Positions 5,599 to 16,811 of a DNA stretch of 32,000 nt are shown one piece after another. Under the pieces are notes generated by a model that was not told the DNA's origin, did not search any database, and saw nothing but the letters and a program-made list of their open reading frames with translations. The position numbers and the translations under genes were made by a program. The DNA is taken from NCBI GenBank assembly GCA_023423895.1, contig JAFAER010000267.1, forward strand, positions 1 through 32,000. The letters run 5' to 3'. The stretch comes from Pseudomonadota bacterium (GTDB lineage: Bacteria; Myxococcota_A; Polyangia; Polyangiales; Polyangiaceae). Each line of letters begins with the position of its first letter. The first letter of the stretch is position 1.

Positions 5599-5660
5599 AT
5601 AAGCAGATGTCCGGACGGCTCGTCCGGAGCAGGTCGCTGCGGGGGCCGGAGGGCATCGGT

Positions 5661-5733: not shown

Positions 5734-5828
5734 ATGGCTTCGAGACGTGACGGTCGGCGGTCTCTGGGAGTCGTCGCCCGGCTCGTGCCCGGCCTCGTGA
5801 TAGGCGGGGCGTCGGGTCGTCTCGAGGC

Positions 5829-5899
5829 TCCGGAGGAGGGAATTGCACCCCCACCCCAGCGGTTCAAAGCCGCGGATCCTGCTGTTGGAACACTCCGGA
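5829..5899 (-). tRNA. tRNA-Gln(UUG), G55 T-loop variant
   Basis: Acceptor UCCGGAG/CUCCGGA (7 bp), anticodon loop CUUUGAA, T arm GGGGG-UGCAAUU-CCCUC. Confidence 0.6.
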
Positions 5900-5925
5900 A
5901 TGGGTGGCTCAGCGAGTGAGCCGGT

Positions 5926-5993
5926 CGCTGCGGGCAGAGTCGAACTGCCTGGACCGCGCTCATGAGGCGCGCCCTCCTCCGAGGACCGCAGCG
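5926..5993 (-). tRNA. tRNA-Met(CAU) type, short D arm (68 nt)
   Basis: Acceptor CGCUGCG/CGCAGCG, anticodon arm CGCGC-CUCAUGA-GCGCG, T arm GGCAG-UUCGACU-CUGCC. The D arm is reduced to UCC-UCGGA-GGA. Confidence 0.6.
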
Positions 5994-6038
5994 GAGGTCC
6001 GCGCTCGACGTGTGCACGTGCGTGCGTGCTGGGCGAGA

Positions 6039-6108
6039 GCGGTGACCGAGAATCGCACTCGGATCTCGAGCGTGGCGTGCTCGGGTTCTGCTCTTGAACT
6101 ATCACCGC
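6039..6108 (-). tRNA. tRNA-Gly(GCC), G55 T-loop variant
   Basis: Acceptor GCGGUGA/UCACCGC, D arm GUUC-AAGAGCA-GAAC, anticodon arm CGAGC-ACGCCAC-GCUCG (C33), T arm CCGAG-UGCGAUU-CUCGG. Confidence 0.6.
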
Positions 6109-6137
6109 AGGATCGGGCCACGTGGAACCCGCGTCGA

Positions 6138-6210
6138 GCCGCCCGAGGGAATTGCACCCTCCTCGTTCCTCGCTACCAGTGAGGTGCCCCGCTGTCTGGG
6201 CGTGGGCGGC
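6138..6210 (-). tRNA. tRNA-Thr(GGU), G55 T-loop variant
   Basis: Acceptor GCCGCCC/GGGCGGC, D arm GCCC-AGACAGCG-GGGC, anticodon loop CUGGUAG, T arm GAGGG-UGCAAUU-CCCUC. Confidence 0.6.
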
Positions 6211-6223
6211 ACGTGAAATAGTC

Positions 6224-6270
6224 GCTCGTCCTCGAGTCATTGCCTCACGAGGCCCCTCGTGAGGACGAGC
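6224..6270 (-). terminator. composite hairpin in the rsr 3' region (terminator or processing structure)
   Basis: Plus-strand gctcgtcctc (6224-6233) pairs with gaggacgagc (6261-6270), enclosing the inner stem acgagg/cctcgt. On the minus strand it lies ~70 nt after the rsr stop and is followed by GACUAUUUCACGU. Confidence 0.3.
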
Positions 6271-6341
6271 AGGTCGACGGCAACGAGGGACGTGCGGTCG
6301 ACATGACCGCCACGGGCATTTGCCGTAGGTTCGAGAGCCGA

Positions 6342-7955
6342 TCACACGGCGATTGACTCGATCGCCTGGAGAAACGCCGCTCCGTCCGCGTCGTCGCTCG
6401 CGAAGGAGGCGACGAGGTCGAAGACGGCATCGGAGAAACCTCCGACGTTCAACACGTCGGAGCGGGTCTGCACTTGCGTCGTCGCGTACGGTTGGAGGTC
6501 CACGAGAACGAGCTTCGCGCGCGGGTTGCTCGCGCGGAGTCGGTCCCACTCCTCCGCCATCACGGTTCCGCGCGTCGCGCTGCTGCCGGAGTCGGCGGAG
6601 CGCGGCGCCAGCCTGAAGTCAGCCCAGGACTGGTTGTCGGAGACAAAGACGACCACGTCGGGCGCGGTTCCACGAGCGTTGAGCCACCGTAGCGGCGCAG
6701 CGCACGAGGTCCCGCCGCTCGGGAGCGACGACAGCAACTCGGCATTGGTGACGACCGAGTCGAGTGCGTTCAGCGGACGCGGAAGCTGCACGACGTCGTC
6801 CGAGAAGGGCAGCACCGTCGCGTGCTCGTTCTTGCGAAGGAGCGCGGCGGTCGCCAGCGCGGCGACGTCGATGCAGCGGACCTTCGAGGTGGCCGTCCCT
6901 CGATGGCCTGTGACGGGCGAGTGCATCGACCCGGAGACGTCGGGACAGAGCGCAACGGAGCCCGGGATCGCGGGCACGTTGCCGACGGCGTGCTCGACGG
7001 CGCGAGCCAGCGCGCTGACGATTACCGGCGGCATGCTCTGCTCGACGGCGCGATACGTTGCGAGCAGCTGATACGGGAGCGTGCGCGAGCGCCTCACGGC
7101 GTCGGCGTCCGAGAGCTGCTCGGCGACGAGCTCGACGATCGCGGGGTCGGTGAAGACGCCGTGACGGTAGAGCGTGTTCAGATTTTGGCGGAGCTGGTTG
7201 AACGTCATCTTCTTCGCCAGCTCGGTCCAGTGCGCCGCGCGCAGAGGGAGAGCGGTAAGCATCTCGAACGGCACGTCGGGCAGCGGCTTCCGATCGTTCT
7301 TCTTCCAGGCCTCGAAGGCCTGGGTGAGCGGCGGCAGCTTCGAGCAGTCCACGTTCTTTCCGATGAGGTAGCCGTAGAGGGCCTCACGGACGGCATCGGC
7401 TTCGCCCTTCCCCCCGACGGCGTTCCGCGGGGGAGGACGAACCATCTTGATGACGTCCGACATGGACGGGCTCTGACCGATGGACTGGCGGAAGATGGTC
7501 TCGGGGCTCCTTGCTGCGAACCATTCGCGGAGAGCCCGTTTGGGCGCCGACCCGAACGACTTGCGGCCGGTGACTCCAGAACGGACGATCGCGACGAACG
7601 CACGCAACATCCGCGCATCGTCGATGACGCGCGGGAACACGCGGAGCATGAGCGAGACGTCGTGGGCGGCGAGCCAGGCGACGAGGAACGCGGGGACGTC
7701 CTTCATCCTGCCGTGCTCACGACAGTAGACAGCCGTCTTCGCGACGAGCTCGGGGCGGACGGCGCTCGCGAGCTCCGCGACCTTGTCGAGCTGCTGCTGA
7801 CCGGTCGCGTAGAACGTGCGATGGAACGTCCCGGTCACCGCATACTGCGCGAGCGCATGCTCGGGCGAGAGCGCGTATGCCGGACCTCCGGCCTCGTTGC
7901 GAGCATCGGCCACGGGCGCTTTGCGTGCGTGACCAAAAAGATGTGTGTTCGGCAT
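6342..7955 (-). CDS. rsr: Ro60 ortholog: TROVE domain plus vWA domain with MIDAS motif
   Basis: 537 aa. The N-terminal region is typical of TROVE/Ro60 (NEAGGPAYALSPEHALAQYAVTGTFHRTFYA). The C-terminal vWA has a DVSGSM MIDAS-like motif. AAGGAG Shine-Dalgarno sits 6 nt upstream of the ATG. Confidence 0.85.
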   Translation of the reverse strand: MPNTHLFGHARKAPVADARNEAGGPAYALSPEHALAQYAVTGTFHRTFYATGQQQLDKVAELASAVRPELVAKTAVYCREHGRMKDVPAFLVAWLAAHDVSLMLRVFPRVIDDARMLRAFVAIVRSGVTGRKSFGSAPKRALREWFAARSPETIFRQSIGQSPSMSDVIKMVRPPPRNAVGGKGEADAVREALYGYLIGKNVDCSKLPPLTQAFEAWKKNDRKPLPDVPFEMLTALPLRAAHWTELAKKMTFNQLRQNLNTLYRHGVFTDPAIVELVAEQLSDADAVRRSRTLPYQLLATYRAVEQSMPPVIVSALARAVEHAVGNVPAIPGSVALCPDVSGSMHSPVTGHRGTATSKVRCIDVAALATAALLRKNEHATVLPFSDDVVQLPRPLNALDSVVTNAELLSSLPSGGTSCAAPLRWLNARGTAPDVVVFVSDNQSWADFRLAPRSADSGSSATRGTVMAEEWDRLRASNPRAKLVLVDLQPYATTQVQTRSDVLNVGGFSDAVFDLVASFASDDADGAAFLQAIESIAV

Positions 7956-8050
7956 GACGACTCCTTTCCGAGCGAGGGCGTGTTCGGCCGTGCGCGTGCT
8001 CGAGCGCGCGACCGTGTGATTCCGGTCGATGAATGAACGAGAGACGAGGC

Positions 8051-8123
8051 GTTCCCGACGGGATTCGAACCCGTGTTCCTGGATTGAGAGCCCAGAGTCC
8101 TTGGCCGCCTAGACGACGGGAAC
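8051..8123 (-). tRNA. tRNA-Glu(CUC)
   Basis: Acceptor GUUCCCG/CGGGAAC, D arm GUC-UAGGCGGCCAAG-GAC, anticodon arm CUGGG-CUCUCAA-UCCAG, T arm ACGGG-UUCGAAU-CCCGU. Confidence 0.85.
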
Positions 8124-8135
8124 AGTGGAGATGAA

Positions 8136-8262
8136 GGTCGTCCGAGTGACTCGAGCATCGGTGTTGACTTGGGAATCGAACCCAAACCGTCAGCCTGGAA
8201 AGCTGATGTCCTGACCATTTGGACGAGTCGAGTGCGTGTGAGCTCGGGTCGAGCGGACGACC
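8136..8262 (-). ncRNA. stem-clamped tRNA-like RNA (unit 0), Y-RNA-like candidate
   Basis: A perfect 9-bp closing helix GGUCGUCCG (8262-8254) / CGGACGACC (8144-8136). Next comes a 3x3 internal loop (CUC vs ACU), then helix 2 GACCCGAGC/GCUCGAGUC (8 of 9 bp) and an ACACGCA linker. The stem encloses D, anticodon (UCC) and T arms but no proper acceptor stem. Confidence 0.55.
8162..8233 (-). tRNA. tRNA-Gly(UCC)-like core of unit 0 (acceptor stem degenerate)
   Basis: D arm GUCC-AAAUGGUCA-GGAC, anticodon arm UCAGC-UUUCCAG-GCUGA, T arm UUGGG-UUCGAUU-CCCAA. Only 3-4 of 7 acceptor positions can pair. Confidence 0.4.
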
Positions 8263-8266
8263 TGGA

Positions 8267-8337
8267 TGCAGCGGCTGGAGTCGCACCAGCGTCTCGAGCG
8301 TATGAAGCTCGCGGGGTGGCTCCTCCCCCACGCTGCG
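8267..8337 (-). tRNA. tRNA-Met(CAU) type with C1xA72 mismatch, G55 T-loop variant
   Basis: 5' strand CGCAGCG vs 3' strand CGCUGCA (C1/A72 unpaired, an initiator-like feature). D arm GGGG-AGGAGCCA-CCCC, anticodon arm CGAGC-UUCAUAC-GCUCG, T arm GCUGG-UGCGACU-CCAGC. CCA is encoded. Confidence 0.65.
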
Positions 8338-8382
8338 ATGACGCTCCGAAGCCGAGAGCAGTGCTCTCGGTCTCCAGAGGGC

Positions 8383-8453
8383 ACCTCCGCCGGGAGTCGA
8401 ACCCGGGAGAACGAGCTTCGGATGCTCGACCCTGATTCCGTCAGGACGAAGGT
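8383..8453 (-). tRNA. tRNA-Arg(CCG)
   Basis: Acceptor ACCUUCG/CGGAGGU (one G-U), anticodon arm CGAGC-AUCCGAA-GCUCG, T arm CCGGG-UUCGACU-CCCGG. Confidence 0.75.
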
Positions 8454-8484
8454 AGATGATGGAGACAGATGCTGAATGTTTGGC

Positions 8485-8555
8485 CTCCCCGCTAGGAATC
8501 GAACCTAGACAACCGGCTTCGTAGACCGATGCATGGAATCCACCACGACGAGGAG
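8485..8555 (-). tRNA. tRNA-Arg(ACG)
   Basis: Acceptor CUCCUCG/CGGGGAG, anticodon arm UCGGU-CUACGAA-GCCGG, T arm CUAGG-UUCGAUU-CCUAG. CCA is encoded. Confidence 0.75.
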
Positions 8556-8576
8556 AAACGAAAATCGAGCGACAGA

Positions 8577-8664
8577 GGAAGAAAGAGGTCTCGAACCCCA
8601 CACCCTCGGTGAAGGGTGCGCTTTGCTTTCGAAGCAAGCCTGGCTCCCAGCCAGTTTTTCTCCC
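8577..8664 (-). tRNA. tRNA-Ser(CGA), class II
   Basis: Acceptor GGGAGAA/UUCUUCC, D arm CUGG-CUGGGAG-CCAG, anticodon arm CUUGC-UUCGAAA-GCAAA, long variable hairpin CACCCU-UCACCG-AGGGUG, T-loop UUCGAGA. Confidence 0.7.
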
Positions 8665-8671
8665 GAGAAGT

Positions 8672-8743
8672 GGTCGGTGAGGGAATCGAACCCCCTACGC
8701 AGAGCTTTTCAAACTCCCGCTCTACCATTCGAGCTTACCGACC
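8672..8743 (-). tRNA. tRNA-Phe(GAA)
   Basis: Acceptor GGUCGGU/ACCGACC, D arm GCUC-GAAUGGUA-GAGC, anticodon arm GGAGU-UUGAAAA-GCUCU, T arm GGGGG-UUCGAUU-CCCUC. Confidence 0.9.
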
Positions 8744-8752
8744 CTGTGACAC

Positions 8753-8790
8753 CGTTGGCGCGTTGCGCCCCGTTGCGCCTCGTTGCGCGT
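8753..8790. repeat. four tandem copies of CGTTG(C/G)CG at 8-10-bp spacing in a tRNA spacer
   Basis: cgttggcg cgttgcgc cc cgttgcgc ct cgttgcgc, read directly between tRNA-Phe and tRNA-Ser(GGA). Confidence 0.7.
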
Positions 8791-8815
8791 CGCGGACACG
8801 TCAGGGCCGCGGAGA

Positions 8816-8902
8816 GGAAGGCAGAGGACTCGAACCCCACGCGGACGATGGCCGCGCGAATCGCGTTCCAGACGATCTCCGCCCCTGGCGGATTTGCCTT
8901 CC
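8816..8902 (-). tRNA. tRNA-Ser(GGA), class II
   Basis: Acceptor GGAAGGC/GCCUUCC, anticodon arm AUCGU-CUGGAAC-GCGAU, variable hairpin CGCGG..CCGCG, T-loop UUCGAGU. Confidence 0.75.
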
Positions 8903-8955
8903 GTGTTCGTGTATCGATTCGTTCGAGCTCGCACGGCGTGCGGAACGAGCGCGGT

Positions 8956-9029
8956 CAGGACGGCAGGATTCGAACCTGCGGTCTCCAGTCCCCCAGACTG
9001 GCGCTTTTGCCTGGCTAAGCTACGCCCTG
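8956..9029 (-). tRNA. tRNA-Pro(GGG)
   Basis: Acceptor CAGGGCG/CGUCCUG (C1-G72), D arm GCUU-AGCCAGGCAA-AAGC, anticodon arm CCAGU-CUGGGGG-ACUGG, T arm GCAGG-UUCGAAU-CCUGC. Confidence 0.85.
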
Positions 9030-9077
9030 AGATGCCGGCGCGTGACGGCTTCGTGAATGGGTGGATGTCGCGCGAGG

Positions 9078-9114
9078 CGAGAAGAATAGGAGGTCCAGTT
9101 TCACGTCTTGGACC
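9078..9114 (-). terminator. candidate intrinsic terminator after the HNH gene
   Basis: Minus-strand hairpin GGUCCA-(11 nt)-UGGACC followed by UCCUAUUCUUCU. A second 8-bp hairpin (GUCGUGGC/GCCACGAC) lies just upstream. Confidence 0.35.
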
Positions 9115-9170
9115 AGGACGCGGGAGCGTGTGTCGTGGCGCGGGCCACGACGCATCGATGCGTCGACGTC

Positions 9171-9773
9171 TCAGGCAGAGAGCGAAGCCGGCGCAGTGTA
9201 GCCGTCGCAGTACGGCTGCCAGACATCCGGCAGCTCACTCTCGTCGAGACGGATCGGCGGCACGACGGGCAGCGAGGTCGGCTTCTTCGGCTGCCGCAGC
9301 AGCTTCATGCCGGCCTGCTCAGGCGTGCGGCTCCCCTTGCGATCATTGCAGGCGTAGCAGGAGGTCACGATGTTCTCCCAGACGGTCTTGCCTCCCCGAA
9401 CACGCGGGATGACGTGGTCGTAGTTCAGTTGCTTCATCGGCTTCTTCTCGCCGCAGTACTGGCAACGGAACTTGTCCCGCGTGAACACGTTCAACCGGGA
9501 GAAGCGGACCGACTGCTTCGTCGACACCGACCCCTTCTTCAGGCGGACGACGGCGGGGGCGAGCATCGCGAAGCTCGGGGCGCGGAGCTCCGCGTCCCAG
9601 GTCTCGATGACTTCGACCTTGTCGAGGTAAGCCAGCACGACGGCGCGCTGCCAGGGAATGATCTTGTGAGGCGCCATCCAGGGGGTCAGCATCAGCGTTT
9701 GCATGGGGATCACCGTTTCTTTCTCGTTCTCACGGCTCGTTCTCCTTTCGGAGGTGTTGAAGGAGTCGTGCAC
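9171..9773 (-). CDS. HNH endonuclease (COG1403-like, ~180 aa class)
   Basis: CQYCG..(N)LNYDHVIPRVRGGKTVWENIVTSCYACNDRKG is a classic HNH/zinc-ribbon core. The N-terminal MQTLMLTPWMAPHKIIPWQRAV matches the usual start of this family, so ATG 9704 is the likelier start. Confidence 0.85.
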   Translation of the reverse strand: MHDSFNTSERRTSRENEKETVIPMQTLMLTPWMAPHKIIPWQRAVVLAYLDKVEVIETWDAELRAPSFAMLAPAVVRLKKGSVSTKQSVRFSRLNVFTRDKFRCQYCGEKKPMKQLNYDHVIPRVRGGKTVWENIVTSCYACNDRKGSRTPEQAGMKLLRQPKKPTSLPVVPPIRLDESELPDVWQPYCDGYTAPASLSA

Positions 9774-9847
9774 GATGCACGACGACAGAAGCGCAAAGGG
9801 ATGGACGTGTGACCGGACGCTGAGGCGGCGCGTGGATGGCGCGCAGT

Positions 9848-9931
9848 GTCACCGGAGGGAGTCGAACCCTCAAACTCCATGCGGAGCCCAGCATCTCGGG
9901 CTGGTGTGTATTCCAATTCCACCACAGTGAC
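9848..9931 (-). tRNA. tRNA-Leu(GAG), class II
   Basis: Acceptor GUCACUG/CGGUGAC, anticodon arm CCAGC-CCGAGAU-GCUGG (C33), variable hairpin CUCC-GCAU-GGAG, T arm GAGGG-UUCGACU-CCCUC. Confidence 0.75.
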
Positions 9932-9998
9932 GTATTCGCGTGACGTATCGCGTCCGGTCGCTCCCGGCGGATGGCCGAGGTGCGATGGGGACGTTGGT

Positions 9999-10073
9999 AC
10001 CGACGGAGGGATTCGAACCCTCACAACACACAGTTTCTGAGACTGCGGCCTCTACCAGTTGGGCCACGTCGGC
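9999..10073 (-). tRNA. class-I-sized tRNA-like gene with CAG (Leu-type) anticodon
   Basis: Acceptor GCCGACG/CGUCGGU, anticodon arm GCAGU-CUCAGAA-ACUGU, 7-nt variable region GUGUUGU (no long arm), T arm GAGGG-UUCGAAU-CCCUC. The D stem is imperfect. CCA is encoded. Confidence 0.5.
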
Positions 10074-10117
10074 TCGAGGCGTGCTCCGCGTCCGCTCGAG
10101 GCGTGCGCGTGCGTGGT

Positions 10118-10191
10118 CTGTGCAGGAGGATTCGAACCTCCAATCCCTCCGACCCGAACGGAGTGCTCTAGCCAGGTTGAGCCATGCACAG
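10118..10191 (-). tRNA. tRNA-Pro(CGG)
   Basis: Acceptor CUGUGCA/UGCACAG, D arm GCUC-AACCUGGCUA-GAGC, anticodon arm CUCCG-UUCGGGU-CGGAG, T arm GGAGG-UUCGAAU-CCUCC. CCA is encoded. Confidence 0.9.
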
Positions 10192-10233
10192 AGGACCAGC
10201 GAAGCCCGACGGGAGCTCGAGCGTGGCTGGGGT

Positions 10234-10303
10234 GGACAAGTCGGGAGTCGCACCCGATCCATCTGCTTGCAAGGCAGACGTCTCCCCTCGGAGACAAGCC
10301 CGT
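10234..10303 (-). tRNA. tRNA-Ala(UGC)-like element with no pairable acceptor stem
   Basis: Anticodon arm UCUGC-CUUGCAA-GCAGA and T arm UCGGG-UGCGACU-CCCGA are clear. The D region is a 6-bp hairpin GUCUCC-GAGG-GGAGAC. The two ends carry the same-sense GACAAG instead of complementary strands. The right boundary is approximate. Confidence 0.35.
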
Positions 10304-10354
10304 GATGATGATGACGGCGGTCCGTCGCTGGAATCGCAGCGGTCCGTGCCCGGT

Positions 10355-10426
10355 GCGGCGCGCAGGGATCGCACCTGCCTCCTCCTGCTCGTCATGCAGG
10401 CGCAGTCGCTAGACTGCCAGCGCCGC
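10355..10426 (-). tRNA. tRNA-Val(GAC), G55 T-loop variant
   Basis: Acceptor GCGGCGC/GCGCCGC, D arm GCAG-UCUAGCGA-CUGC, anticodon arm CCUGC-AUGACGA-GCAGG, T arm GCAGG-UGCGAUC-CCUGC. Confidence 0.8.
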
Positions 10427-10489
10427 TCTCGCTGTTCGACCCCAGGGTGCAAACGTGCACACGTTTGTACGTCTGTCCCTCGCGTCGGT

Positions 10490-10561
10490 GGATCACCTGC
10501 GAATCGAACGCAGTGCGGGCTCCTTATCAGAGAGTCCAGGGTGACCAACCCGTCGTGATCC
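10490..10561 (-). tRNA. tRNA-Ile(GAU)
   Basis: Acceptor GGAUCAC/GUGAUCC, anticodon loop CUGAUAA on stem CUCU/GGAG, T arm CUGCG-UUCGAUU-CGCAG. Confidence 0.7.
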
Positions 10562-10603
10562 CGTGCTCCGTAGAGCTCGCGTTGCTGCCCGAGCGACGCG
10601 GGA

Positions 10604-10671
10604 GAGCCGAGAGGGAGTTGAACCCTCGCGCACCGTGTTGCAGACGGCGATCCTCGCCGGAGAATCGGCTC
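10604..10671 (-). tRNA. tRNA-Cys(GCA)
   Basis: Acceptor GAGCCGA/UCGGCUC, short D arm, anticodon arm GCCGU-CUGCAAC-ACGGU, T arm GAGGG-UUCAACU-CCCUC. Confidence 0.7.
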
Positions 10672-10738
10672 GAAGAAGTGGGCGCAGTTCCTCGTGGGCC
10701 GACGTCACGTGAGCGTCGGCGGTGGGGGGCTGCGCGGA

Positions 10739-10808
10739 GCGGGCAGAGGGAGTCGCACCCTCATTGTCAGTTTGGAAGACTGCGGTCCTGCTGTTGGACG
10801 ATGCCCGC
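10739..10808 (-). tRNA. tRNA-Gly(UCC), G55 T-loop variant
   Basis: Acceptor GCGGGCA/UGCCCGC, D arm GUCC-AACAGCA-GGAC, anticodon loop CUUCCAA, T arm GAGGG-UGCGACU-CCCUC. Confidence 0.75.
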
Positions 10809-11241
10809 GAGTGGTGGTGGTGTGTGAATGGTGTGGCCGGAGATGGGGGAGCAAAAGTGGGGATGCGGTTCCGAAATCGCAAGTCTCGACGAAGGTGATG
10901 AAGACATGGTGCTCGGCGGCGGATCGCTGCCTCTGCACCGTCGGCACATTGGAGCCGCCCGTGAGGGCTGCTCCCGTTCGCCCCGCAATAGGGAAGTTCA
11001 CCGAAGTGGTCTCCCGAGAGCGCCCGGCTGGAGTCTGCGGGGCGCTCTCTGACTTCCCCTATGCCATCGCTAGATCGGTCGCCCGACCGTCGCTACCTTA
11101 GGACCGTTATAGTTACGGATGTAGTCCTCATCGGCATTCGAGACCGACGACGCTTGCTCGTGTCGTGTGAGATCCTTCTTGGTGTGCGGACGACGTCGCG
11201 TACGACGACGTCGTCGAAGTGAATGGATGAAGGTGGTTGGT
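10809..11241 (-). ncRNA. structured non-tRNA insert in the array (candidate ncRNA containing a 23S rRNA H69-H71-like segment)
   Basis: No tRNA fits. There is a three-way structure at 10988-11062: AUAGGGGAAGU/ACUUCCCUAU closing GAGAGCGCCC/GGGCGCUCUC and a CAC-UUCG-GUG hairpin. A T-arm-like hairpin UCGGU-CUCGAAU-GCCGA lies at 11131-11147, plus the rRNA-identical 29-mer. Orientation is assumed from the surrounding array. Confidence 0.4.
11090..11118 (-). other. 29-nt perfect copy of the conserved 23S rRNA helix 69/70 segment (contains the I-CeuI homing site)
   Basis: Minus strand reads CCGUAACUAUAACGGUCCUAAGGUAGCGA. From memory this is identical to E. coli 23S about 1908-1936 (H69 loop with U1911/1915/1917) and includes TAACTATAACGGTCCTAAGGTAGCGA. 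The downstream GUCGGG..GACC..GAUGGC loosely echoes H71. Confidence 0.75.
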
Positions 11242-11313
11242 GGAGCCGGCCGGACTCGCACCGGCAGCCTCCTCGATGCCATCGAGGCGCTCTCCTCGCT
11301 GAGCTACGGCCCC
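11242..11313 (-). tRNA. tRNA-Ala(GGC), G55 T-loop variant
   Basis: Acceptor GGGGCCG/CGGCUCC with G3-U70, D arm GCUC-AGCGAGGA-GAGC, anticodon arm CCUCG-AUGGCAU-CGAGG, T arm GCCGG-UGCGAGU-CCGGC. CCA is encoded. Confidence 0.8.
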
Positions 11314-11353
11314 GTTCGTTTCGTGGCGTGGTCTTACTGTTCTATGCGCGGGT

Positions 11354-11423
11354 GGAGCGACGGGGAATCGCACCCCGATCCCTGCAGTGCGAATGCAGCG
11401 TTCTCCTGTTGAACTATCGCCCC
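11354..11423 (-). tRNA. tRNA-Ala(CGC), G55 T-loop variant
   Basis: Acceptor GGGGCGA/UCGCUCC with G3-U70, D arm GUUC-AACAGGA-GAAC, anticodon arm CUGCA-UUCGCAC-UGCAG, T arm CGGGG-UGCGAUU-CCCCG. Confidence 0.8.
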
Positions 11424-11480
11424 GTGCCATGATCCGTTCGTCGACGGCGACACGACGTTCATGACGAGAATGGGAGGGGC

Positions 11481-11550
11481 AGGCCGCGAAGGAATCGAAC
11501 CCTCTCTCCGGGGGTTGGAATCCCGGCTGGTCGCCATGACTCTACGGCCT
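11481..11550 (-). tRNA. tRNA-Trp(CCA) (alternative reading Gly-UCC)
   Basis: Acceptor AGGCCGU/GCGGCCU with A1-U72 and G73. The best anticodon-arm fold is CGGGA-UUCCAAC-CCCCG (A31xC39). T arm GAGGG-UUCGAUU-CCUUC. Confidence 0.6.
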
Positions 11551-11595
11551 ATCTTGTGTGCGGGAACATGGGGATGGCGATCCCTCGACGTTGGC

Positions 11596-11666
11596 GACCC
11601 ATACCGAAATCGAATCGGTCTCACGCCGTAGACAGCGGCGCTGCGACACCAGTCGCATCATGGGCC
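11596..11666 (-). tRNA. tRNA-Asp(GUC)
   Basis: Acceptor GGCCCAU/AUGGGUC, anticodon arm CGCCG-CUGUCUA-CGGCG, T arm ACCGA-UUCGAUU-UCGGU. The D region is a GCGAC-UGGU-GUCGC hairpin. CCA is encoded. Confidence 0.75.
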
Positions 11667-11702
11667 AGAAGCTCTGGAACCTTGGTACTTCTTCTTGCGG
11701 GC

Positions 11703-11773
11703 GTCCCCGGCAGGAGTCGAACCTGCGTCGGCTGGTTTAGAAGACCAGCGCCTATCCGCTCGGCCACGAGGAC
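11703..11773 (-). tRNA. tRNA-Arg(UCU)
   Basis: Acceptor GUCCUCG/CGGGGAC, anticodon arm CUGGU-CUUCUAA-ACCAG, T arm GCAGG-UUCGACU-CCUGC. Close paralog of the next gene. Confidence 0.85.
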
Positions 11774-11810
11774 GTGCGGTCAGCGACGGCGGCCGAAGCG
11801 TGGTGTGGGC

Positions 11811-11881
11811 GTCCCCGGCAGGAATCGAACCTGCGTCGACCGGCTCAGGAGACCGGAGCCTGTCCGCTCGGCCACGAGGAC
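11811..11881 (-). tRNA. tRNA-Arg(CCU)
   Basis: Same acceptor and D arm as the previous gene. Anticodon arm CCGGU-CUCCUGA-GCCGG, T arm GCAGG-UUCGAUU-CCUGC. Confidence 0.85.
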
Positions 11882-11928
11882 CAGACCATGCGTTGACCGA
11901 GAGCCGAGCGAGGTGACGCGCGGCCGGG

Positions 11929-12000
11929 GTAGCGTACGGGAATCGCACCCGCCTCCACTGAGTCACAATCAGTCCTCGTCACTAGACGAGTAACGCTACC
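11929..12000 (-). tRNA. tRNA-His(GUG) with encoded G-1, G55 T-loop variant
   Basis: Acceptor GUAGCGU/ACGCUAC preceded by G(-1) opposite C73. D arm CUCG-UCUAGUGA-CGAG, anticodon arm ACUGA-UUGUGAC-UCAGU, T arm GCGGG-UGCGAUU-CCCGU. Confidence 0.85.
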
Positions 12001-12086
12001 GTGTATTCTTGTGCTCATCGAGGTTGTTCGTGTCAACCCGCCTTTGGAGCGAATCGTTCGCTTTCGATGATTGTCGATTGGTTGGT

Positions 12087-12157
12087 GCTCCCGATCGGAA
12101 TCGAACCGATACCTTCCGCTTGAAAGGCGGAGATCCTGACCACTAGATGACGGGAGC
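12087..12157 (-). tRNA. tRNA-Glu(UUC)
   Basis: Acceptor GCUCCCG/CGGGAGC, anticodon arm UCCGC-CUUUCAA-GCGGA, T arm AUCGG-UUCGAUU-CCGAU. CCA is encoded. Confidence 0.85.
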
Positions 12158-12407
12158 GAGGAATGAAGCGAGCCCCGGACGAGCCGAGGGATGTCGTCGC
12201 AGGCGCTCGCGCTTTCGGCTCGTTGGCCGAAGGGCGAGCTTCGGGCGGCACCGGTCACGCGCGAGCGAACGAGAGCGCGCGCCGGTACGGAAGAGGAGCG
12301 CCTCGTCGGACGCGGGCCCGCGAGGCGTGGAGCTCAGATGTGAGCTCGGCAAGCTCGCCGGCGTCGGGGAGAGGTGTGTGGGACCGACGCGCGAGCTGCT
12401 GGAGAGG

Positions 12408-12623
12408 TTTCTCACCCGAGTGAAAAAGCCTTTGGATTGAACCATCTTCAAGGATGAGGCCTTTACCAATTAGGCTATCGCTGCATTTGGTCCGGTCGTG
12501 ACCGGGCGCTCTCGTATGAGAGCCGACGATGGACGTCGCGGTGACGAGCACCGTGTGCAGCGAGTCGGATTCGAACCGACAATTTCTCGATTGCGTGTAG
12601 GGCATCTTCGGGCGGGTGAGAAA
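12408..12623 (-). ncRNA. circularly permuted tRNA-like RNA, unit 1 (YrlA/Y-RNA-like candidate)
   Basis: Minus strand read 5'->3'. Closing strand UUUCUCACCCG (12623-12613), CCC, helix-2 strand GAAGAUGCC, then CUACACGCAAU linker. T arm GUCGG-UUCGAAU-CCGAC (12580-12564), acceptor 3' strand UCGCUGC (12563-12557), and a 72-nt hairpin-rich cap. Acceptor 5' strand GCAGCGA (12484-12478), D arm GCC-UAAUUGGUAAA-GGC, hairpin UCAUC-CUUGAA-GAUGG. It ends GGCUUUUUC, ACU, closing strand CGGGUGAGAAA (12418-12408). Confidence 0.6.
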
Positions 12624-12726
12624 GATCGTGGGCGCTCGAGCCAAGCTCAGCGGAGCGGCGAGCGGCGAAGGCGAAGGCGAGCTCGGGACGATGACGGAGG
12701 AGCCCGCGTCCGAGCGCGGCGTGGGT

Positions 12727-12803
12727 CCCTCGTGATGGAATCGAACCACCTGCCGAAAGGCACCGGGTTACAGCCGGCTGCTCCGCCATGGAGCGAACGA
12801 GGG
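12727..12803 (-). tRNA. tRNA-Tyr(GUA), class II
   Basis: Acceptor CCCUCGU/ACGAGGG, D arm GCUC-CAUGGCG-GAGC, anticodon arm GCCGG-CUGUAAC-CCGGU, variable hairpin GCC-UUUC-GGC, T arm GGUGG-UUCGAUU-CCAUC. Confidence 0.85.
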
Positions 12804-12822
12804 AGGACGAGGGATGAGAGGG

Positions 12823-12989
12823 ATCACCCGAGTGGGAAAGCCGTCATTCGTCTGAAAGGACGAGCGCCTTGACCATTAGGCTACGCTGGAAGGAGTAGTA
12901 GCGCGTGGGCTCGAGCGAGCTCGAGGTTCCAGCGGTCGGAATCGAACCGACGTCTCTCATTGCGTGTAGGGCCTTCGCGGCCGGGTGAT
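12823..12989 (-). ncRNA. circularly permuted tRNA-like RNA, unit 2 (YrlA/Y-RNA-like candidate)
   Basis: Minus strand read 5'->3'. Closing AUCACCCG (12989-12982), GCCGC, GAAGGCC, CUACACGCAAU linker. T arm GUCGG-UUCGAUU-CCGAC (12951-12935), acceptor 3' strand CGCUGGA (12934-12928) followed by ACC, then a 37-nt cap with the CUCGAG-CUCG-CUCGAG hairpin. Acceptor 5' strand UCCAGCG (12890-12884), D arm GCC-UAAUGGUCAA-GGC, hairpin UCGUC-CUUUCA-GACGA. It ends GGCUUUC, CCACU, CGGGUGAU (12830-12823). Confidence 0.6.
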
Positions 12990-12992
12990 GGA

Positions 12993-13063
12993 GCCCACGT
13001 CCGGAATCGAACCGGATCCTCCCGTGTACGAGGCGGGCGCTCGGCCAGTCGAGCTGCGCGGGC
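12993..13063 (-). tRNA. tRNA-Thr(CGU)
   Basis: Acceptor GCCCGCG/CGUGGGC, D arm GCUC-GACUGGCC-GAGC, anticodon arm CCCGC-CUCGUAC-ACGGG (C31xA39), T arm UCCGG-UUCGAUU-CCGGA. CCA is encoded. Confidence 0.75.
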
Positions 13064-13205
13064 AAAAGGCCGTACGTCATCCCGGTACGGCGGACGGGCG
13101 AAGTGAAACCGCGAGGGTCCCACGGAAAAAGGTGCTCGCGGTGCGCGCGGCGCTCTCGAGAGGAGAGCGCGCACGCCGGCGCGCGCGGGGGAAAGTCGAG
13201 AGGAG

Positions 13206-13362
13206 GCTCGTCCGAGTGAAGAGAGCCTTGCGATGTGCTCGTGTGCGAAACGAGTGCCTTTTCCGTTTGGCTGGCGGCCCTTTGCCTTTCGGCGAGGTGG
13301 ACCACGTTGGATTCGAACCAACATGTCGTGCGTGTGTGGCCTGTTCGAACGGACGAACGAGC
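13206..13362 (-). ncRNA. circularly permuted tRNA-Ala-like RNA, unit 3 (YrlA/Y-RNA-like candidate)
   Basis: Minus strand read 5'->3'. Closing UCGUCCG (13356-13350), UUC, GAACAGGCC, ACACACGCA linker. T arm GUUGG-UUCGAAU-CCAAC (13322-13306), acceptor 3' strand GUGGUCC (13305-13299) followed by ACC, then an 18-nt cap GCC-GAAA-GGC. Acceptor 5' strand GGGCCGC (13280-13274, giving G3-U70), D arm GCC-AAACGGAAAA-GGC, anticodon arm CUCGU-UUCGCAC-ACGAG (CGC). It ends GGCUCUCUUC, ACU, CGGACGA (13214-13208). Confidence 0.6.
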
Positions 13363-13433
13363 TCCAGCGGAAGGAATCGAACCTTCGAATGACCGGTTAA
13401 CAGCCGGCTGCCTGACCATTCGGCTTCGCTGGA
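13363..13433 (-). tRNA. tRNA-Asn(GUU)
   Basis: Acceptor UCCAGCG/CGCUGGA (identical to the unit 2 acceptor), anticodon arm GCCGG-CUGUUAA-CCGGU, T arm GAAGG-UUCGAUU-CCUUC. Confidence 0.85.
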
Positions 13434-13587
13434 ATGTGTGCTCGTCGCGTCCGTGCGTGCTGCTGCCGTCTCGGCGAATCCGATCTCTTCCGAGGCGGGA
13501 CGACGAAGCGGTCAGCGCGCACGGACGCGACGAGCTTTTTGGCGCCAAGTTGTCAGAGAGCGAGGGACGTCGTGAGACGTCCGCGGT

Positions 13588-13657
13588 TCCGGGCACAGGA
13601 TTCGAACCTGTCTTCCTGGATTCAGAGACCAGTGTCCTGCCGCTAGACGAGCCCGGA
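13588..13657 (-). tRNA. tRNA-Gln(CUG)
   Basis: Acceptor UCCGGGC/GCCCGGA (U1-A72), D arm GUC-UAGCGGCAG-GAC, anticodon loop CUCUGAA, T arm ACAGG-UUCGAAU-CCUGU. Confidence 0.75.
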
Positions 13658-13716
13658 GCAGGAGCGGCGTGCCGAAGGCGCACGTCGCCTGTGGCCGCGT
13701 CCTTCGACGCGGCGGT

Positions 13717-13788
13717 AGGTCCGGAGGGGGTCGAACCCTCACCACCCCGATTAAGAGTCGGGTGCGCTTCCACTTGCGCTACGGACCC
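13717..13788 (-). tRNA. tRNA-Lys(CUU)
   Basis: Acceptor GGGUCCG/CGGACCU, D arm GCGC-AAGUGGAA-GCGC, anticodon arm CCCGA-CUCUUAA-UCGGG, T arm GAGGG-UUCGACC-CCCUC. Confidence 0.85.
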
Positions 13789-14092
13789 GTGACGAGAAGC
13801 GCGCGTTGCTGTTCGTGTCGGAAAGAGCGAGCGCGCCTTCGGTATTGCTTGGGCGCGCCCGACGGTCATGTCGCGTGCAAGCCGGATCCGCATGAGGATC
13901 CCGCGATGCAGCGACGTCGCCGAGTCGAAGACGAGGACGTCGAGGACCATGGGGGTCGAGCCACGCGTCGTGACCGATGCTCGGTGACGAGCGAGAGAGG
14001 GGTAGGGGAGAGAGTCGAGTCGCGAAAAGACGAGCGTGGTGTGCGCCGCCGCGACGCCAGCGACGTGTCTGCCGGCGCGCGGCGCAGGGGGG

Positions 14093-14164
14093 GGGGCGCG
14101 AGGGGGTCGAACCCTCATCCCTCGGCTTAAAAGGCCGGTGCTCGGCCGATTGAGCTAGCGCCCC
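14093..14164 (-). tRNA. tRNA-Lys(UUU), first gene of the array
   Basis: Acceptor GGGGCGC/GCGCCCC, D arm GCUC-AAUCGGCC-GAGC, anticodon loop CUUUUAA, T arm GAGGG-UUCGACC-CCCUC. Confidence 0.8.
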
Positions 14165-14903
14165 ATGAATCGCGTTTGAGAACGCGACGTGGACTTAGAT
14201 TCCTAGCTTGAGAAACATGATCGAACCTGTCGACAAAGTCGTATTGTTAGGCATGGCCGAATCGGGCCGCGCCAGTAGGGAGGATCGAACGGCGCCGAAG
14301 CGAGGAAGGCCGCTCCGGTCAGCCTTCTGTTCCGCGAGACCATGGCCCGGCGGCCTCCTCGGACGGGGCGGCGATGCCGCAGTCCGACGAGAAGGGAGCT
14401 CGAGCGCCGTCGAGGTGGCGGCGCGCCATCGGCTGATGATGCGCAGAAAATCCCGGCCCAGAAACGCCGAAGGCCACCTCGGGGACTACCCCGGGCGGCC
14501 TCTGCGAACGGCTCCGAACGATGGAGACGATACGAGGGACCGCTAGGGGTCGCCTTCCTCCTGGTTTGCGCTCGGACCGAGCGGACGAGGGGCGGCGAAC
14601 ATGCGGCTCTGGGCCTGATCGAGGCCGTCGAAGCCGCCAAGGATGGCAGGGGAGGCAGAGATGGACGGAGAGGCGGAGCGCGGGACGGAGGTCCGGCAGC
14701 TCTGGCCAGCGACGAACCCACCCGAGGTGGGTCGGCGCCACGCGCGATGCGACCGTCCCTCGGACGCGAGATACGTCACGCCGTTGCGCTCTTGCGCTCC
14801 AGCGGCCGTCCTCTTGTCTTTCAGGGAGATGATCACGCGAGTCGAACACGCCCGGGACCTCCGGAACGTGCCTCCATGTGGAGAAGGGGTTGCTGTTTCT
14901 AGA

Positions 14904-14939
14904 CGTCCCCGGCAGGAACGCCATTCAAGCTATAGCCCC
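14904..14939 (-). pseudogene. orphan tRNA fragments (tRNA-Arg 3' end fused to a tRNA 5' end)
   Basis: Plus-strand cgtccccggcaggaa (14904-14918) is identical to the 3' acceptor/T-stem of tRNA-Arg(CCU) at 11810-11824. The adjacent minus-strand GGGGCUAUAGCUUGAAUGG looks like a tRNA 5' acceptor plus D arm. No complete cloverleaf can be formed. Confidence 0.35.
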
Positions 14940-15590
14940 GATTTTTGACGGCGCAAGGATCTGAATCGAAAAAGTTTCGCTTCTCTACCCAAGCGGACGC
15001 GCGCTTCAAATGAAGTTCCTTCCAGGACTGTCCACAAAGCTCGGGGTCTTCACGCGATGAGGCGCGTTGGACGCGCCGCGAGACGTCGCGCACCAACGCG
15101 GCCGAAGCCAGCGGCGTGAACCCTACGCGGTGTGCGGGCGTGCCGTCTCGTGTCGAGCGCTGACTCGCAGAGGCCGCGAACCTTCTCGAAGTGGTGTGTT
15201 GTTCGTCGCTACAACTGAGGGCAGCCCTCCGGGTGTTCCTTCCCGCTAGCGAGGGCATCCGCCCGCGAACCTCCCGATGCTGGGTGGGAGGAGCATCGGC
15301 ATCGGCGCGATGGTGGGCTGGGCATCGGCAGACGAGCCCCCGCTCGAGCCGGCCCGCAGCGGCTCGAGACCAGCGGATGCGATGACCGGTGGCGTTTTCG
15401 GGACATTTGTCGCCCCCGCCGACATTGCTCGATCGAGGGATCTCCGTGCTCGCAGCTTCCAAGCGTCCGCAGCGGGCGTACGCCCGTCGCGCCATGGCCG
15501 CGCGCGGGACGCGGCTCCAGTCGCGCAGGATCCGATCCTCGGCGTTCCCGTCGAATCGAGCTCCGTCAACGTGATCAAAGGAGACTTCCC

Positions 15591-16811
15591 TTGAGATGTC
15601 GCATTCTCGCGGCTCTACTGGCCCTCGCATCCATCGGTGTCGCGGCGTCGTGCTCGTCCCCGGAGTCGCTGGGAAGGGGATTCGACATCGACGCAGGCGC
15701 GCCGGGAGCGTCGTTCGCGGACATGGACGCTTCGGACTCGGACTCGGACGCGGAGGTCGGCCTCACGTCCTACTGTCCGTCGAACCGATGCCCTGAGGGC
15801 AGGACGACGTGCCCGACCTCCAGCTTCCCGTGCGATGTGGACCTTCTCTCGGACAGAGAGAACTGCGGTAGGTGCGGCAACGCCTGTCAGGCCTTGGGCG
15901 GCGGAAGCACGGAGTGCGTCGAGGGACACTGCATCCTCGCTTGTCCCGCGCCACCGCGCAATATCGATTGTGACGGCCTTCCCGATAACGGCTGCGAGAC
16001 CAAGAGCGTCACCAACGAGAACTGCGGCGGATGCGGCGTCAAATGTACCGATCCGGCCAAGCCGTGCATCGATACCGGCAACGGAGTTCGATGCGGGTGC
16101 AAGGCAGGCCTGATCATGTGTCCGCATCCCGTCAGTGGCGAGCCGTCCTGTCTCGATCCTTCAGCAGACGACATGAATTGCGGCGCCTGCGGGAGGGTAT
16201 GCGATCCGGCGGGAGACGGGGCTCCGACGCCGCCGACGAATACACGTTATGGCTGCATCGGTGGTGAGTGTGGAAAAGTAAAATGTGAATCTGGGTTTAT
16301 GGACTGTGATGGCAATCCGTCCAATGGTTGCGAGACGAGCACGCTCTCGTCCGACAATTGTGGCGGTTGCGGAAACGCCTGTGCTCCCGGCCTGGAGTGC
16401 AGAGGCAACAAGGTCATGAAGCCCACGTGCTCGTGCCCTGGGGGAGAGACGTACTGTCCGTACTTCTCGATCGAGCTCGGAGAGACCACGGTCTACCTCG
16501 CTGGGACGTGCACCAATCTCGGCTCCGATCGCGACAATTGCGGCGCCTGCTTTCATGCCTGCGTTGGCGGTGGAAACACCAGCATTGCCGCCTGCACATA
16601 TGGCATGTGCACCAAGCAGTGTGTGCATGGGCGTGCGGACTGCAACGGGGATCCCTTCGACGAGTGCGAGATCGACATCGACAGCGATCCTCGAAACTGC
16701 GGCGGCTGCGGAAGGGTCTGTGACGCCATCGCCGGACAAGCATGCGTCGGCGGTCGGTGCGTGGTCGAGCCCTGTGACGACGTTCAGGACGGCGGAGAAC
16801 TCGCGCGATGA
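15591..16811 (+). CDS. cysteine-rich repeat lipoprotein (repeated D..NCG.CG..C modules)
   Basis: TTG start 7 nt after AAGGAG. Signal peptide with lipobox (GVAASC). At least seven copies of the (D/E)NCG(R/G/A)CG..C motif. Confidence 0.8.
   Translation: MRCRILAALLALASIGVAASCSSPESLGRGFDIDAGAPGASFADMDASDSDSDAEVGLTSYCPSNRCPEGRTTCPTSSFPCDVDLLSDRENCGRCGNACQALGGGSTECVEGHCILACPAPPRNIDCDGLPDNGCETKSVTNENCGGCGVKCTDPAKPCIDTGNGVRCGCKAGLIMCPHPVSGEPSCLDPSADDMNCGACGRVCDPAGDGAPTPPTNTRYGCIGGECGKVKCESGFMDCDGNPSNGCETSTLSSDNCGGCGNACAPGLECRGNKVMKPTCSCPGGETYCPYFSIELGETTVYLAGTCTNLGSDRDNCGACFHACVGGGNTSIAACTYGMCTKQCVHGRADCNGDPFDECEIDIDSDPRNCGGCGRVCDAIAGQACVGGRCVVEPCDDVQDGGELAR

Follow-up and report, generated by a model that had tools for sequence, protein, structure and literature searches.

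A Ro60 gene and a 23S rRNA-like sequence lie in one tRNA array

The window analyzed here is the whole 32,000-nucleotide (nt) stretch at positions 1 to 32,000 (forward strand) of contig JAFAER010000267.1 in GenBank assembly GCA_023423895.1. It is chromosomal DNA with 66% G+C from a Labilithrix-like member of Polyangia (Myxococcota). We report that a tRNA array in this window holds the minus-strand sequence of a conserved structured RNA of ~265 nt (10881..11145), which carries 29 nt identical to E. coli 23S rRNA on a scaffold resembling those of bacterial Y RNAs.

Genes in the window include RecA, ComM, an FHA/sigma-54 activator and Ser/Thr kinases. The tRNA array spans ~8.5 kb (5658-14164) and consists of 34 co-oriented tRNA genes on one strand. 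It also holds a Ro60 (Rsr) gene (6342..7955, minus strand; Pfam vWA_Ro60, 8.7e-15, and TROVE, 8.5e-8). Homologues of this gene are named 60 kDa SS-A/Ro or TROVE, and the nearest ones carry the names Labilithrix or Polyangiaceae. An HNH endonuclease gene (9171..9773, minus strand; Pfam HNH_5, 1.3e-17) lies within the array as well and is kept in syntenic loci. The sequence identical to 23S rRNA is found 1.3 kb from the HNH gene, in a 429-nt spacer between tRNA-Ala(GGC) upstream (11238..11313, minus strand) and tRNA-Gly(UCC) downstream (10736..10808, minus strand). The Ro60 gene lies ~2.9 kb downstream of the 23S-like RNA on the same strand.

Compared loci and contigs are labeled with L-numbers. 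The order RecA, ComM, tRNA array with HNH and Ro60 genes, M18 peptidase repeats in relatives whose Ro60 is 62-87% identical. The slot between tRNA-Ala(GGC) and tRNA-Gly(UCC) is present in relatives, and in L002 and L004 it contains the exact 29-mer.

With 34 tRNA genes in 8.5 kb and an embedded HNH gene, the array has the makeup of an L-array (at least 20 co-oriented tRNA genes, densely packed, often with an HNH gene). HNH genes are typical of horizontally transferred long tRNA arrays (PMC8421152). The occurrence in phages and scattered phyla is a further likeness to L-arrays (PMC8421152, PMC4758250). In contrast to these, the array here is syntenically stable within its clade, between comM and the M18 peptidase gene, and the main text of PMC8421152 does not contain the terms 'Ro60', 'Y RNA' or '23S'.

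The match to 23S rRNA is exact and ends at both borders

The minus strand at 11090..11118 reads CCGTAACTATAACGGTCCTAAGGTAGCGA (the same 29-mer: CCGUAACUAUAACGGUCCUAAGGUAGCGA). A preliminary description, made from the sequence alone, had identified this as a perfect copy of E. coli 23S positions of about 1908-1936. The identification was correct, as each of 5426 complete E. coli genomes matches the 29-mer at 29/29 nt in its 23S rRNA gene. It occupies 1902-1930 of the annotated 2898-nt 23S feature of NZ_AP018488.1 and ~1908-1936 in the standard 2904-nt E. coli numbering. In the Rfam large subunit (LSU) rRNA alignment, the E. coli stretch comprises helix 69 (H69; <<<<<<_______>>>>>>) and the CUAAG / GUAGCGA that follows it. 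Dinucleotide-preserving shuffles of the window (n = 100) contained no match to the 29-mer, even with three mismatches allowed. These data confirm that the match to 23S rRNA is real.

Beyond the 29-mer, identity to E. coli 23S breaks off on either side, and neither flank aligns to 23S. Rfam models of LSU rRNA and of introns gave no match at E<=10 in the 650 nt around it. Therefore, the sequence is no truncated rrn operon, pseudogene or chimera, and the earlier statements that no rRNA-like sequence surrounds the copy and that it is not a cut-down rrn fragment both stand. Weak similarity to 23S beyond the 29-mer is seen in a hairpin resembling helix 71 (H71) and between CGAUGGC and CGAAUGGC. Two further likenesses, GCGGGGCGAACGG to the 2050s and CAAUGUGCCG to the 2500s of 23S, cover few letters, are not conserved beyond Myxococcota and were dropped.

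Known families do not account for the spacer. Rfam returned tRNAs and noise only, with no LSU, intron or Y-RNA family match, whether the gathering threshold or E<=10 was applied, and no Rfam 15 model detects the ~265-nt RNA. There was no tRNA or tRNA-like match in 10809-11237, and blastn of the whole spacer against a phage database gave no match.

The 29-mer belongs to a conserved RNA of ~265 nt

When the spacers of L002, L004 and the window were aligned, a 52-nt invariant block was flanked on either side by conserved structured sequence. A profile search found the unit in L005, L006 and L008 as well. The preliminary description is thus upheld only in part, in that the actual unit is ~265 nt rather than 29 nt and is one member of a large family. 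The RNA at 10881-11145 (265 nt, minus strand) aligns end to end with its relatives and has a minimum free energy of -125 kcal/mol (z = -4.5).

The ends of the RNA pair with each other in two closing stems of 8 and 8-9 bp, which are split by AUGCC on the 5' side and ACCUUCG on the 3' side; 9/16 of their pairs show compensatory changes. The 5' strand of closing stem 1, GGUCUCGA (11138..11145), pairs with UCGAGACU (10882-10889), with 5/8 pairs compensatory, and is overlapped by the CGAA motif CGAAUG (11140-11135). The 5-nt internal loop side AUGCC (11137-11133) leads into the 5' strand of closing stem 2, GAUGAGGAC (11124..11132), which pairs with GUCUUCAUC (10897-10905); here 4/8 pairs are compensatory. 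The 3' strands of both stems together occupy 10882..10905.

Inside the closing stems the order is, from 5' to 3', UACAU, an H69-like hairpin, UCC-UAA-GG-UAGCGA, an H71-like hairpin, a second UAGCGA and a long hairpin. UACAU (11119..11123), YUAY-like, forms the inner end of the scaffold, and its UAC is kept in 47-48/50 family members. The H69-like hairpin, CCGU-AACUAUA-ACGG (11104..11118), is identical to E. coli 23S 1908-1922. It overlaps the 16 nt most conserved in the family, GGUCCUAAGGUAGCGA (11090..11105; 23S 1921-1936), which include C11101-G11097, the equivalent of C1925-G1929. The shortened H71-like hairpin GGUCGGGCGACC, already proposed from the sequence, is present at 11073..11088 as GGUCGG-GCGA-CCGAUC with a GNRA loop, and 6/6 of its pairs covary in relatives. 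The second UAGCGA(UGGC) follows at 11063..11072, and the two UAGCGA copies pair with each other through their GC dinucleotides, so that the H71-like hairpin is enclosed; across 50 cores these pairs are GC 37 / GU 13 and CG 48.

A long hairpin from GCAUAGGGGAAGU to ACUUCCCUAUUGC (10985..11064) ranges from ~30 to 85 nt among relatives, and its closing pairs covary. A conserved 3' domain, GGGGCGAACGG-[hairpin]-CAAUGUGCCGA (10941..10984), is nearly invariant in Myxococcota and served as a search motif independent of the core. In the consensus architecture a second variable hairpin lies between this domain and the 3' strands of the closing stems.

We assessed covariation in two sets. In 12 full-length Myxococcota copies scored against a 41-pair consensus, 93.3% of cells were paired, compared to 81.3% in column shuffles and 32-43% in slid controls. 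Compensatory changes occurred in 19/41 pairs, and 0/500 column shuffles reached any of five measures. In the core regions (56 distinct, 50 aligned), 90.4% of cells were paired and the covariation score was matched by 0/500 shuffles. These data show that the RNA at 10881-11145 is a conserved, covariation-supported structured RNA.

The comparison also settled which stem frames the H69-like hairpin. The preliminary description had drawn an H69-like stem-loop with an inner part, CCGU-AACUAUA-ACGG, and an outer AGGAC/GUCCU stem. The inner part holds. The outer stem loses to closing stem 2, in which AGGAC pairs with GUCUU at the 3' end of the RNA (10905-10901), because C11124:G10905 is replaced by U:A, a compensatory change, in L006 and L034.

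The insert has the local secondary structure of 23S H69-H71

H69 to H71 of 23S, in domain IV, form intersubunit bridges B2a and B3. The insert of the RNA has the same local secondary structure as this region: the H69 hairpin, the 1925-1929 pair, a hairpin at the position of H71 and a G-C closure around it. At the equivalent of C1925-G1929 we counted CG 46, AU 2, GU 1 and UA 1, with the pair open in 0/50 cores. This pair closes a UAA triloop, which is followed by the linker GUAGCGA and the H71-like hairpin under its G-C closure, as with G1935-C1962 in the Rfam LSU structure line. Phage copies have UCGGUAAUUCGA as the H71-like hairpin, which is nearer to the 23S H71 sequence, UCGGGUAAGUUCCGA.

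The RNA also differs from domain IV. Positions 1937-1944 of 23S (AAUUCCUU), the RNase E cleavage region, are missing from every copy, a GNRA tetraloop replaces the H71 loop, H67 and H68 are absent, and the module is enclosed by the Y-type stem. An H67-like pairing of loop AUGCC with GGCAU was considered and fails in L011 and L077; the GC of GGC takes part in a covarying long helix instead. Pairing of UAAGG in trans with the 3' end of 16S rRNA is disfavored because the 1925:1929 equivalent covaries as an internal pair.

Conservation of the core was judged in collections reached by different routes. The 16-nt core is exact in all 5 relatives that were reached through Ro60 and have the element. 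Resampling with the unrelated 3' motif in a metagenome scan gave 84 matches, of which ~60 were unrelated coding sequence (including gut contigs) and ~25 (~20 distinct) were the element. About half of these ~20 have the exact 16-nt core, and the rest carry 1-5 changes, several of them compensatory. The H69 loop reads AACUAUA or AACUAUG in 23/56 distinct cores, and the H69-like stems differ among cores (CCGU/ACGG, AUCGU/ACGGU, CAU/AUG). Mimics from Pirellulaceae have G at the equivalent of 1918. Constraint on the 16-nt core is strong, not absolute, and structural in nature.

The scaffold is that of a Y-type RNA

Bacterial Y RNAs carry a GNCGAAN0-1G / CGAA motif (PMC4201824, PMC12135203), and a YUAY motif has been described for YrlA (PMC4201824). 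A study of Ro60 in phage phiLo located Y-like RNAs through the conserved CGAA motif (PMC12135203). The RNA described here is built in a similar manner, in that its ends pair into a two-part interrupted stem with the YUAY-like UACAU; the stem also carries CGAA, though not the first G of GNCGAAN0-1G. The sequence after the 5' strand of closing stem 2, CUAC-AU (11124-11119), conforms to YUAY, and CGAAUG/A is present in 12/12 Myxococcota copies.

The decisive evidence comes from Planctomycetota, in which L025, L042, L045, L054, L059, L061 and L065 have arrays of 3-6 tandem cassettes that share one scaffold and differ in their inserts. The scaffold begins with NCGACUGCC-N-GGAnUACAU and ends with ...ACUUCGUCG. 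It frames a T arm, acceptor-like stem and D arm in the order of YrlA, a T arm only, a short hairpin, or the 23S-like module, and UACAU precedes the tRNA-like inserts too. A GUAGCG motif common to the tRNA-like cassettes was looked for and is not shared. Since one scaffold frames either tRNA-like or 23S-like inserts, sequence comparison shows the RNA at 10881-11145 to have a Y-type scaffold, with an rRNA-like module apparently replacing the tRNA-like one. L017 has a plain unit of ~90 nt with the Myxococcota scaffold. Among the planctomycete cassettes we also observed a recurrent insert of no assigned kind, GGAAGUUUGAAGU...CUUCAAACUUCGAACUUC, and very short units of 59-85 nt.

The window itself contains a candidate YrlA-type Y RNA (12822..12988, minus strand), with a CGAA-containing closing stem, YACAC, a T arm, an acceptor-like stem and a D arm. 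Spacers of the array contain three copies of a ~55-nt motif from UUCGUCCnCUCGAAnAGGCCnUACACGCAA to GUUGGUUCGAAUCCAAC (CGAA, YACAC and T arm), at 12822-12988, ~13230-13362 and ~12560-12625 (all minus strand), and the motif is found again in L004, L008, L011 and L034. ARAGORN calls none of the three copies. The window has one unit only with the 23S-like insert.

When comparing this RNA to YrlA-type Y RNAs (Chen et al. 2014, PMC4201824; Wang et al. 2018, bioRxiv 10.1101/312249), the likenesses are a position near Ro60 in the same orientation, a long interrupted stem that pairs the ends, a CGAA-type motif near the 5' end (here without the first G of GNCGAAN0-1G) followed by YUAY, and a modular insert that mimics a translation RNA, both kinds of which sit on one scaffold in planctomycetes. 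The differences lie in the insert, which lacks the T arm, acceptor-like stem and D arm of the YrlA subfamily and copies 23S H69 to H71, and in the length, 180-300 nt compared to ~100-130 nt. The RNA is undetected by the tRNA model or other Rfam models.

The RNA family is linked to Ro60 in three phyla and in a phage contig

We scanned one genome per species with the pattern ACAU-N8-14-GGUCCUAAGGUAGCGA, which returned 68 loci in two classes. One class consists of true 23S genes with an intron in the H69 loop. The other consists of 28 non-rRNA loci with a unit of the ~265-nt type, from Myxococcota (Labilithrix, Polyangiaceae, Sandaracinus), Planctomycetota (Pirellulaceae, Rubripirellula, Stieleria) and Cyanobacteria (Okeania, Oscillatoria, Rivularia, Calothrix). 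Of the non-rRNA loci, 16/28 have a Ro60/TROVE gene no more than 8 kb away, compared to 0/39 true-23S or other loci (Fisher, 2.7e-8). In 16/16 of these loci the RNA and the Ro60/TROVE gene are co-oriented.

Twelve of the loci with a Ro60 gene in the fetched stretch of up to 8 kb belong to Myxococcota and Planctomycetota. At four cyanobacterial loci the neighbor is a divergent TROVE/vWA protein whose copies are 65% identical to one another. Its only PDB matches are TROVE-domain proteins (E of 4e-4 to 5e-3), accompanied by a weak tblastn match, and Pfam finds no TROVE and only a weak VWA match in the cyanobacterial neighbor genes, so the assignment to TROVE is weak. Seven IMG/VR phage contigs carry the 23S-like unit inside tRNA arrays, and in one of them, L166, a TROVE and vWA_Ro60 gene lies immediately downstream of the unit. 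These data indicate a strong link between the RNA and Ro60. The link is not obligatory, since two Ro60 loci (L007 and L009) lack a detectable copy.

A survey of neighbor genes at the planctomycete loci found no shared effector gene beyond Ro60, and Band_7 recurs. In two phyla Ro60 is followed at a short distance by a Band_7/SPFH-domain gene, in L005, L006 and L007 (Myxococcota) and at L025:6393-7490 (Planctomycetota).

The RNA is probably a Ro60-bound mimic of 23S domain IV

Among the readings offered by the preliminary description, a Ro60-linked mimic fits the comparative evidence, namely the Y-RNA-type scaffold and the Ro60/TROVE linkage in three phyla and a phage contig. By analogy with YrlA, which mimics tRNA, we think it probable that the RNA is a Ro60-bound Y-class RNA whose module mimics 23S domain IV. 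Of the readings considered, we favor most a Ro60-bound rRNA mimic that acts in the surveillance of ribosomes or rRNA.

A mechanism can be proposed on this basis. The 23S-like RNA is oriented in the direction of transcription of the tRNA array. Because a scan found no promoter-like or terminator-like sites flanking the RNA, and because the RNA begins directly after the upstream tRNA in four relatives (L005, L006, L011 and L034), it would be transcribed together with the tRNAs and might then be released by tRNA-processing enzymes. Ro60 would bind the closing stem, and the 23S-like module would be recognized by a partner that normally recognizes the H69-H71 face of the 50S subunit. This partner may be the surface of helix 44 (h44) of the 30S subunit, an H69-binding factor or the substrate surface of Ro60 itself. 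The module could either tether Ro60 and cooperating exonucleases to a factor or ribosomal surface that reads H69-H71, or compete with the 23S stretch for such a factor.

Known systems offer parallels. Y RNAs connect Ro60 with effectors, PNPase among them, and control access to the Ro60 cavity, and YrlA and Yrn1 present a tRNA-like module. The same working model, in which the stem binds Ro60 and the other module a second partner, applies to Deinococcus radiodurans Yrn1 (Rsr-Y RNA-PNPase, RYPER) and to Yrl1/Yrl2 and phiRo60 of phage phiLo (PMC12135203). In contrast to these, the module here is rRNA-like rather than a T arm. A 2026 study found that human Y3 binds 80S ribosomes, a precedent for an association of Y RNA with ribosomes.

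The position of the copied stretch suggests a role. Rsr functions in 23S maturation and in starvation-induced rRNA decay. In E. coli, RNase E initiates 23S decay by cutting after 1942, and in starvation the upstream fragment is shortened 3' to 5' as far as ~1900 (PMC4931109). The mimicked stretch is the 3' end that remains on the upstream 23S fragment after this cut, and the mimic lacks the cut site. Since the copied stretch is the one trimmed after this cut, the most economical reading appears to be that the RNA acts with Ro60 in the quality control of rRNA or in its decay during starvation.

Several points weigh against a Ro60-bound mimic. Binding by Ro60 is proposed from analogy and linkage, and the RNA is presumed to be expressed. 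L007 and L009, Ro60 loci of related Polyangia, have no detectable copy of the RNA, and for twelve of the copies found by pattern, the short stretch retrieved contains no Ro60 gene. Part of the sample carries ascertainment bias, as Ro60 was the route to five loci and a pattern in which the 16-mer is fixed was the route to 28. In the window motif, CUCGAAUG, CGAA(U)G is present with C in place of the first G of GNCGAAN0-1G, and the motif degrades to CGAC (CGACUG) in Planctomycetota and is weaker in Cyanobacteria. At 180-300 nt, the RNA is two to three times longer than characterized Y RNAs (80-130 nt); the window copy has 265 nt and its relatives 176-300 nt. In many cyanobacterial and several phage copies the 5' half of H69 is missing and AUAACGG is all that remains. 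Together with the 1-5 changes in the 16-nt core of some metagenomic copies, this means that exact identity to 23S is no absolute requirement.

Alternative explanations

The alternative that survives best, though we judge it unlikely, is a decoy or sponge that works independently of Ro60. The RNA would belong to a horizontally spread or counter-defense tRNA cassette and act as a sink for a toxin, modifying enzyme or antibiotic directed at H69/H70, in the way that spare tRNAs stand in for those that are cleaved. This would suit its presence, in bacteria as in the seven phage contigs, in long tRNA arrays that include an HNH gene, the exact retention of the H69 loop nucleotides and the copies with no Ro60 gene in the fetched stretch. 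The cleavage site of MazF-mt6 lies in the 1937-1944 segment of 23S. The mimic lacks exactly this segment, which known H70-directed nucleases cut, and a single gene copy would serve poorly as a stoichiometric sponge when ribosomes number in the thousands. Long tRNA arrays spread horizontally and respond to translational stress (PMC8421152), and tRNA arrays are discussed as anti-defense in PMC12803027. However, a decoy leaves unexplained both the scaffold common to the tRNA-like Y cassettes and the strand-matched linkage to Ro60.

A more speculative extension, which we regard as improbable, is that Ro60 recognition itself is rooted in LSU rRNA. The natural target of Ro60 would be the H69-H70 3' end left by the cut after 1942, with the RNA family as gate or competitor and a strand of hY1 as a distant echo; in a variant, the H69/H71 face would dock the Ro60 particle on h44 of the free 30S subunit. 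In metazoan Y RNAs Ro60 contacts the 5' strand, which in hY1 is GGUCCGAAGGUAGUGA, a sequence confirmed in the literature and identical at 14/16 positions to GGUCCUAAGGUAGCGA of 23S. The first seven bases of this strand, GGUCCGA, are the motif contacted by Ro60. This likeness may be a coincidence or a deep link.

We consider it very unlikely that the sequence is kept as DNA, as a decoy or relic target of a homing endonuclease (I-CeuI-like or other) or integrase specific for rDNA. The 29-mer wholly contains the 26-bp I-CeuI recognition sequence, the HNH nuclease gene is close by, and many bacterial 23S genes have an intron in exactly this H69 sequence. The homing-site relic suggested by the preliminary description is nevertheless not supported by the comparative data. 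Conservation tracks RNA pairing, with compensatory changes in the closing stems, the H71-like hairpin and 1925:1929, and the variant cores would break a long endonuclease site yet retain the RNA fold. All 16 orientable copies lie on the Ro60 strand. In contrast to I-CeuI-type homing sites and group I introns in 23S H69, ~60 copies are uninterrupted by an intron, none lies beside a LAGLIDADG gene, and there is no rDNA context. The HNH gene, of a kind typical of tRNA arrays, is the sole nuclease gene in the vicinity.

A functionless decayed 23S gene fragment or assembly chimera, for which the 29/29 identity and the weak similarity running into the H71-like hairpin and CGAUGGC could be cited, is excluded for practical purposes by flanks that show no alignment to 23S, the lack of an LSU model match, the presence of the unit in an unchanged slot across independent assemblies and, more widely, in three phyla and phages, the strong covariation, and the fact that a neutral relic would not hold 16-29 nt intact while the rest diverges to ~70%.

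Novelty and implications

Full-text searches of the literature on Ro60 or Y RNA with H69, rRNA-like modules, domain IV, tRNA arrays or I-CeuI gave no description of this family, with subscription-only literature lying outside the search. The Y RNA class itself is known; a Y RNA with an rRNA-mimic module appears to be new. Bacterial Y RNAs are known as tRNA mimics. If the RNA is a Ro60-bound mimic, a widespread second type of module copies the most conserved intersubunit helix of the ribosome, and the Y scaffold would be a general display platform for mimics of translation RNAs. Ro60 would then be tied directly to the 50S interface and to 23S decay, and the module would serve as a defined bait for its partner. 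Cyanobacteria and delta-proteobacteria yielded few Y RNAs in a 2014 survey (PMC4201824), and the family supplies a candidate Y RNA partner in both groups. Phage and horizontally transferred tRNA arrays would carry cargo beyond tRNAs. As a practical matter, in organisms that carry the RNA neither an I-CeuI site nor a match to an H69 probe is specific for rrl genes.

Other features of the array and of the compared loci

Within the tRNA array, a 92-nt leader (11146-11237, minus strand) separates tRNA-Ala from the 23S-like RNA and holds a near-perfect GC-rich hairpin, GACGACGUCGUCGUACGCGACGUCGUC, which is not found in relatives whose RNA abuts the tRNA. Two spacers that appear empty contain conserved blocks. 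The block at ~11594-11667 (minus strand) is 98.6% identical to L034 and corresponds to the tRNA-Asp(GUC) slot of L004, and the block at ~5513-5598 (minus strand) is homologous to tRNA-Ser(GCU) of L004. Both are probably tRNA or tRNA-like genes missed by ARAGORN.

Between the tRNA array and comM, the segment at 14200-22700 (~8.5 kb) has a third-position G+C of 0.70-0.80, compared to 0.85-0.92, and has no counterpart in L002, L004 and L005, which are syntenic. Genes of the segment code for an RCC1-repeat protein, an IgGFc_binding-domain protein (PF17517, 4e-98) and a Stig1-like Cys-rich protein. This segment is probably an insertion.

Other genes were seen next to copies of the unit. An AAA_21/AbiEii-like ATPase gene flanks cyanobacterial copies (L037:893-2089 and L066:285-1847, both minus strand), and a GNAT acetyltransferase gene is a flank in L023 and L055. 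The IMG/VR contig L163, which carries the 23S-like unit, has a transfer-messenger RNA (tmRNA) beside tRNAs at 4715-5137 (minus strand), with the tag peptide ANDNVDIPAGLSMADADALVGSTLAVA.

Lastly, the true 23S genes returned by the scan have a feature of their own. In Omnitrophota, the Candidate Phyla Radiation (CPR), WOR-3, TA06, Caldisericota and others, an insertion ending in ...UAACAUnnnnGA lies directly 5' of ACGGUCC, in the H69 loop, and is probably a group I intron. Such insertions occur in L010, L012, L014-L016, L018-L022, L026, L029, L030, L032, L033, L035, L038, L040, L043, L046, L047, L052, L057, L060, L062-L064, L067, L069, L070 and L072-L076. Several of these 23S genes have a second insertion in the H71 loop, after GUCGGGUAA/GUCGGGUGA.

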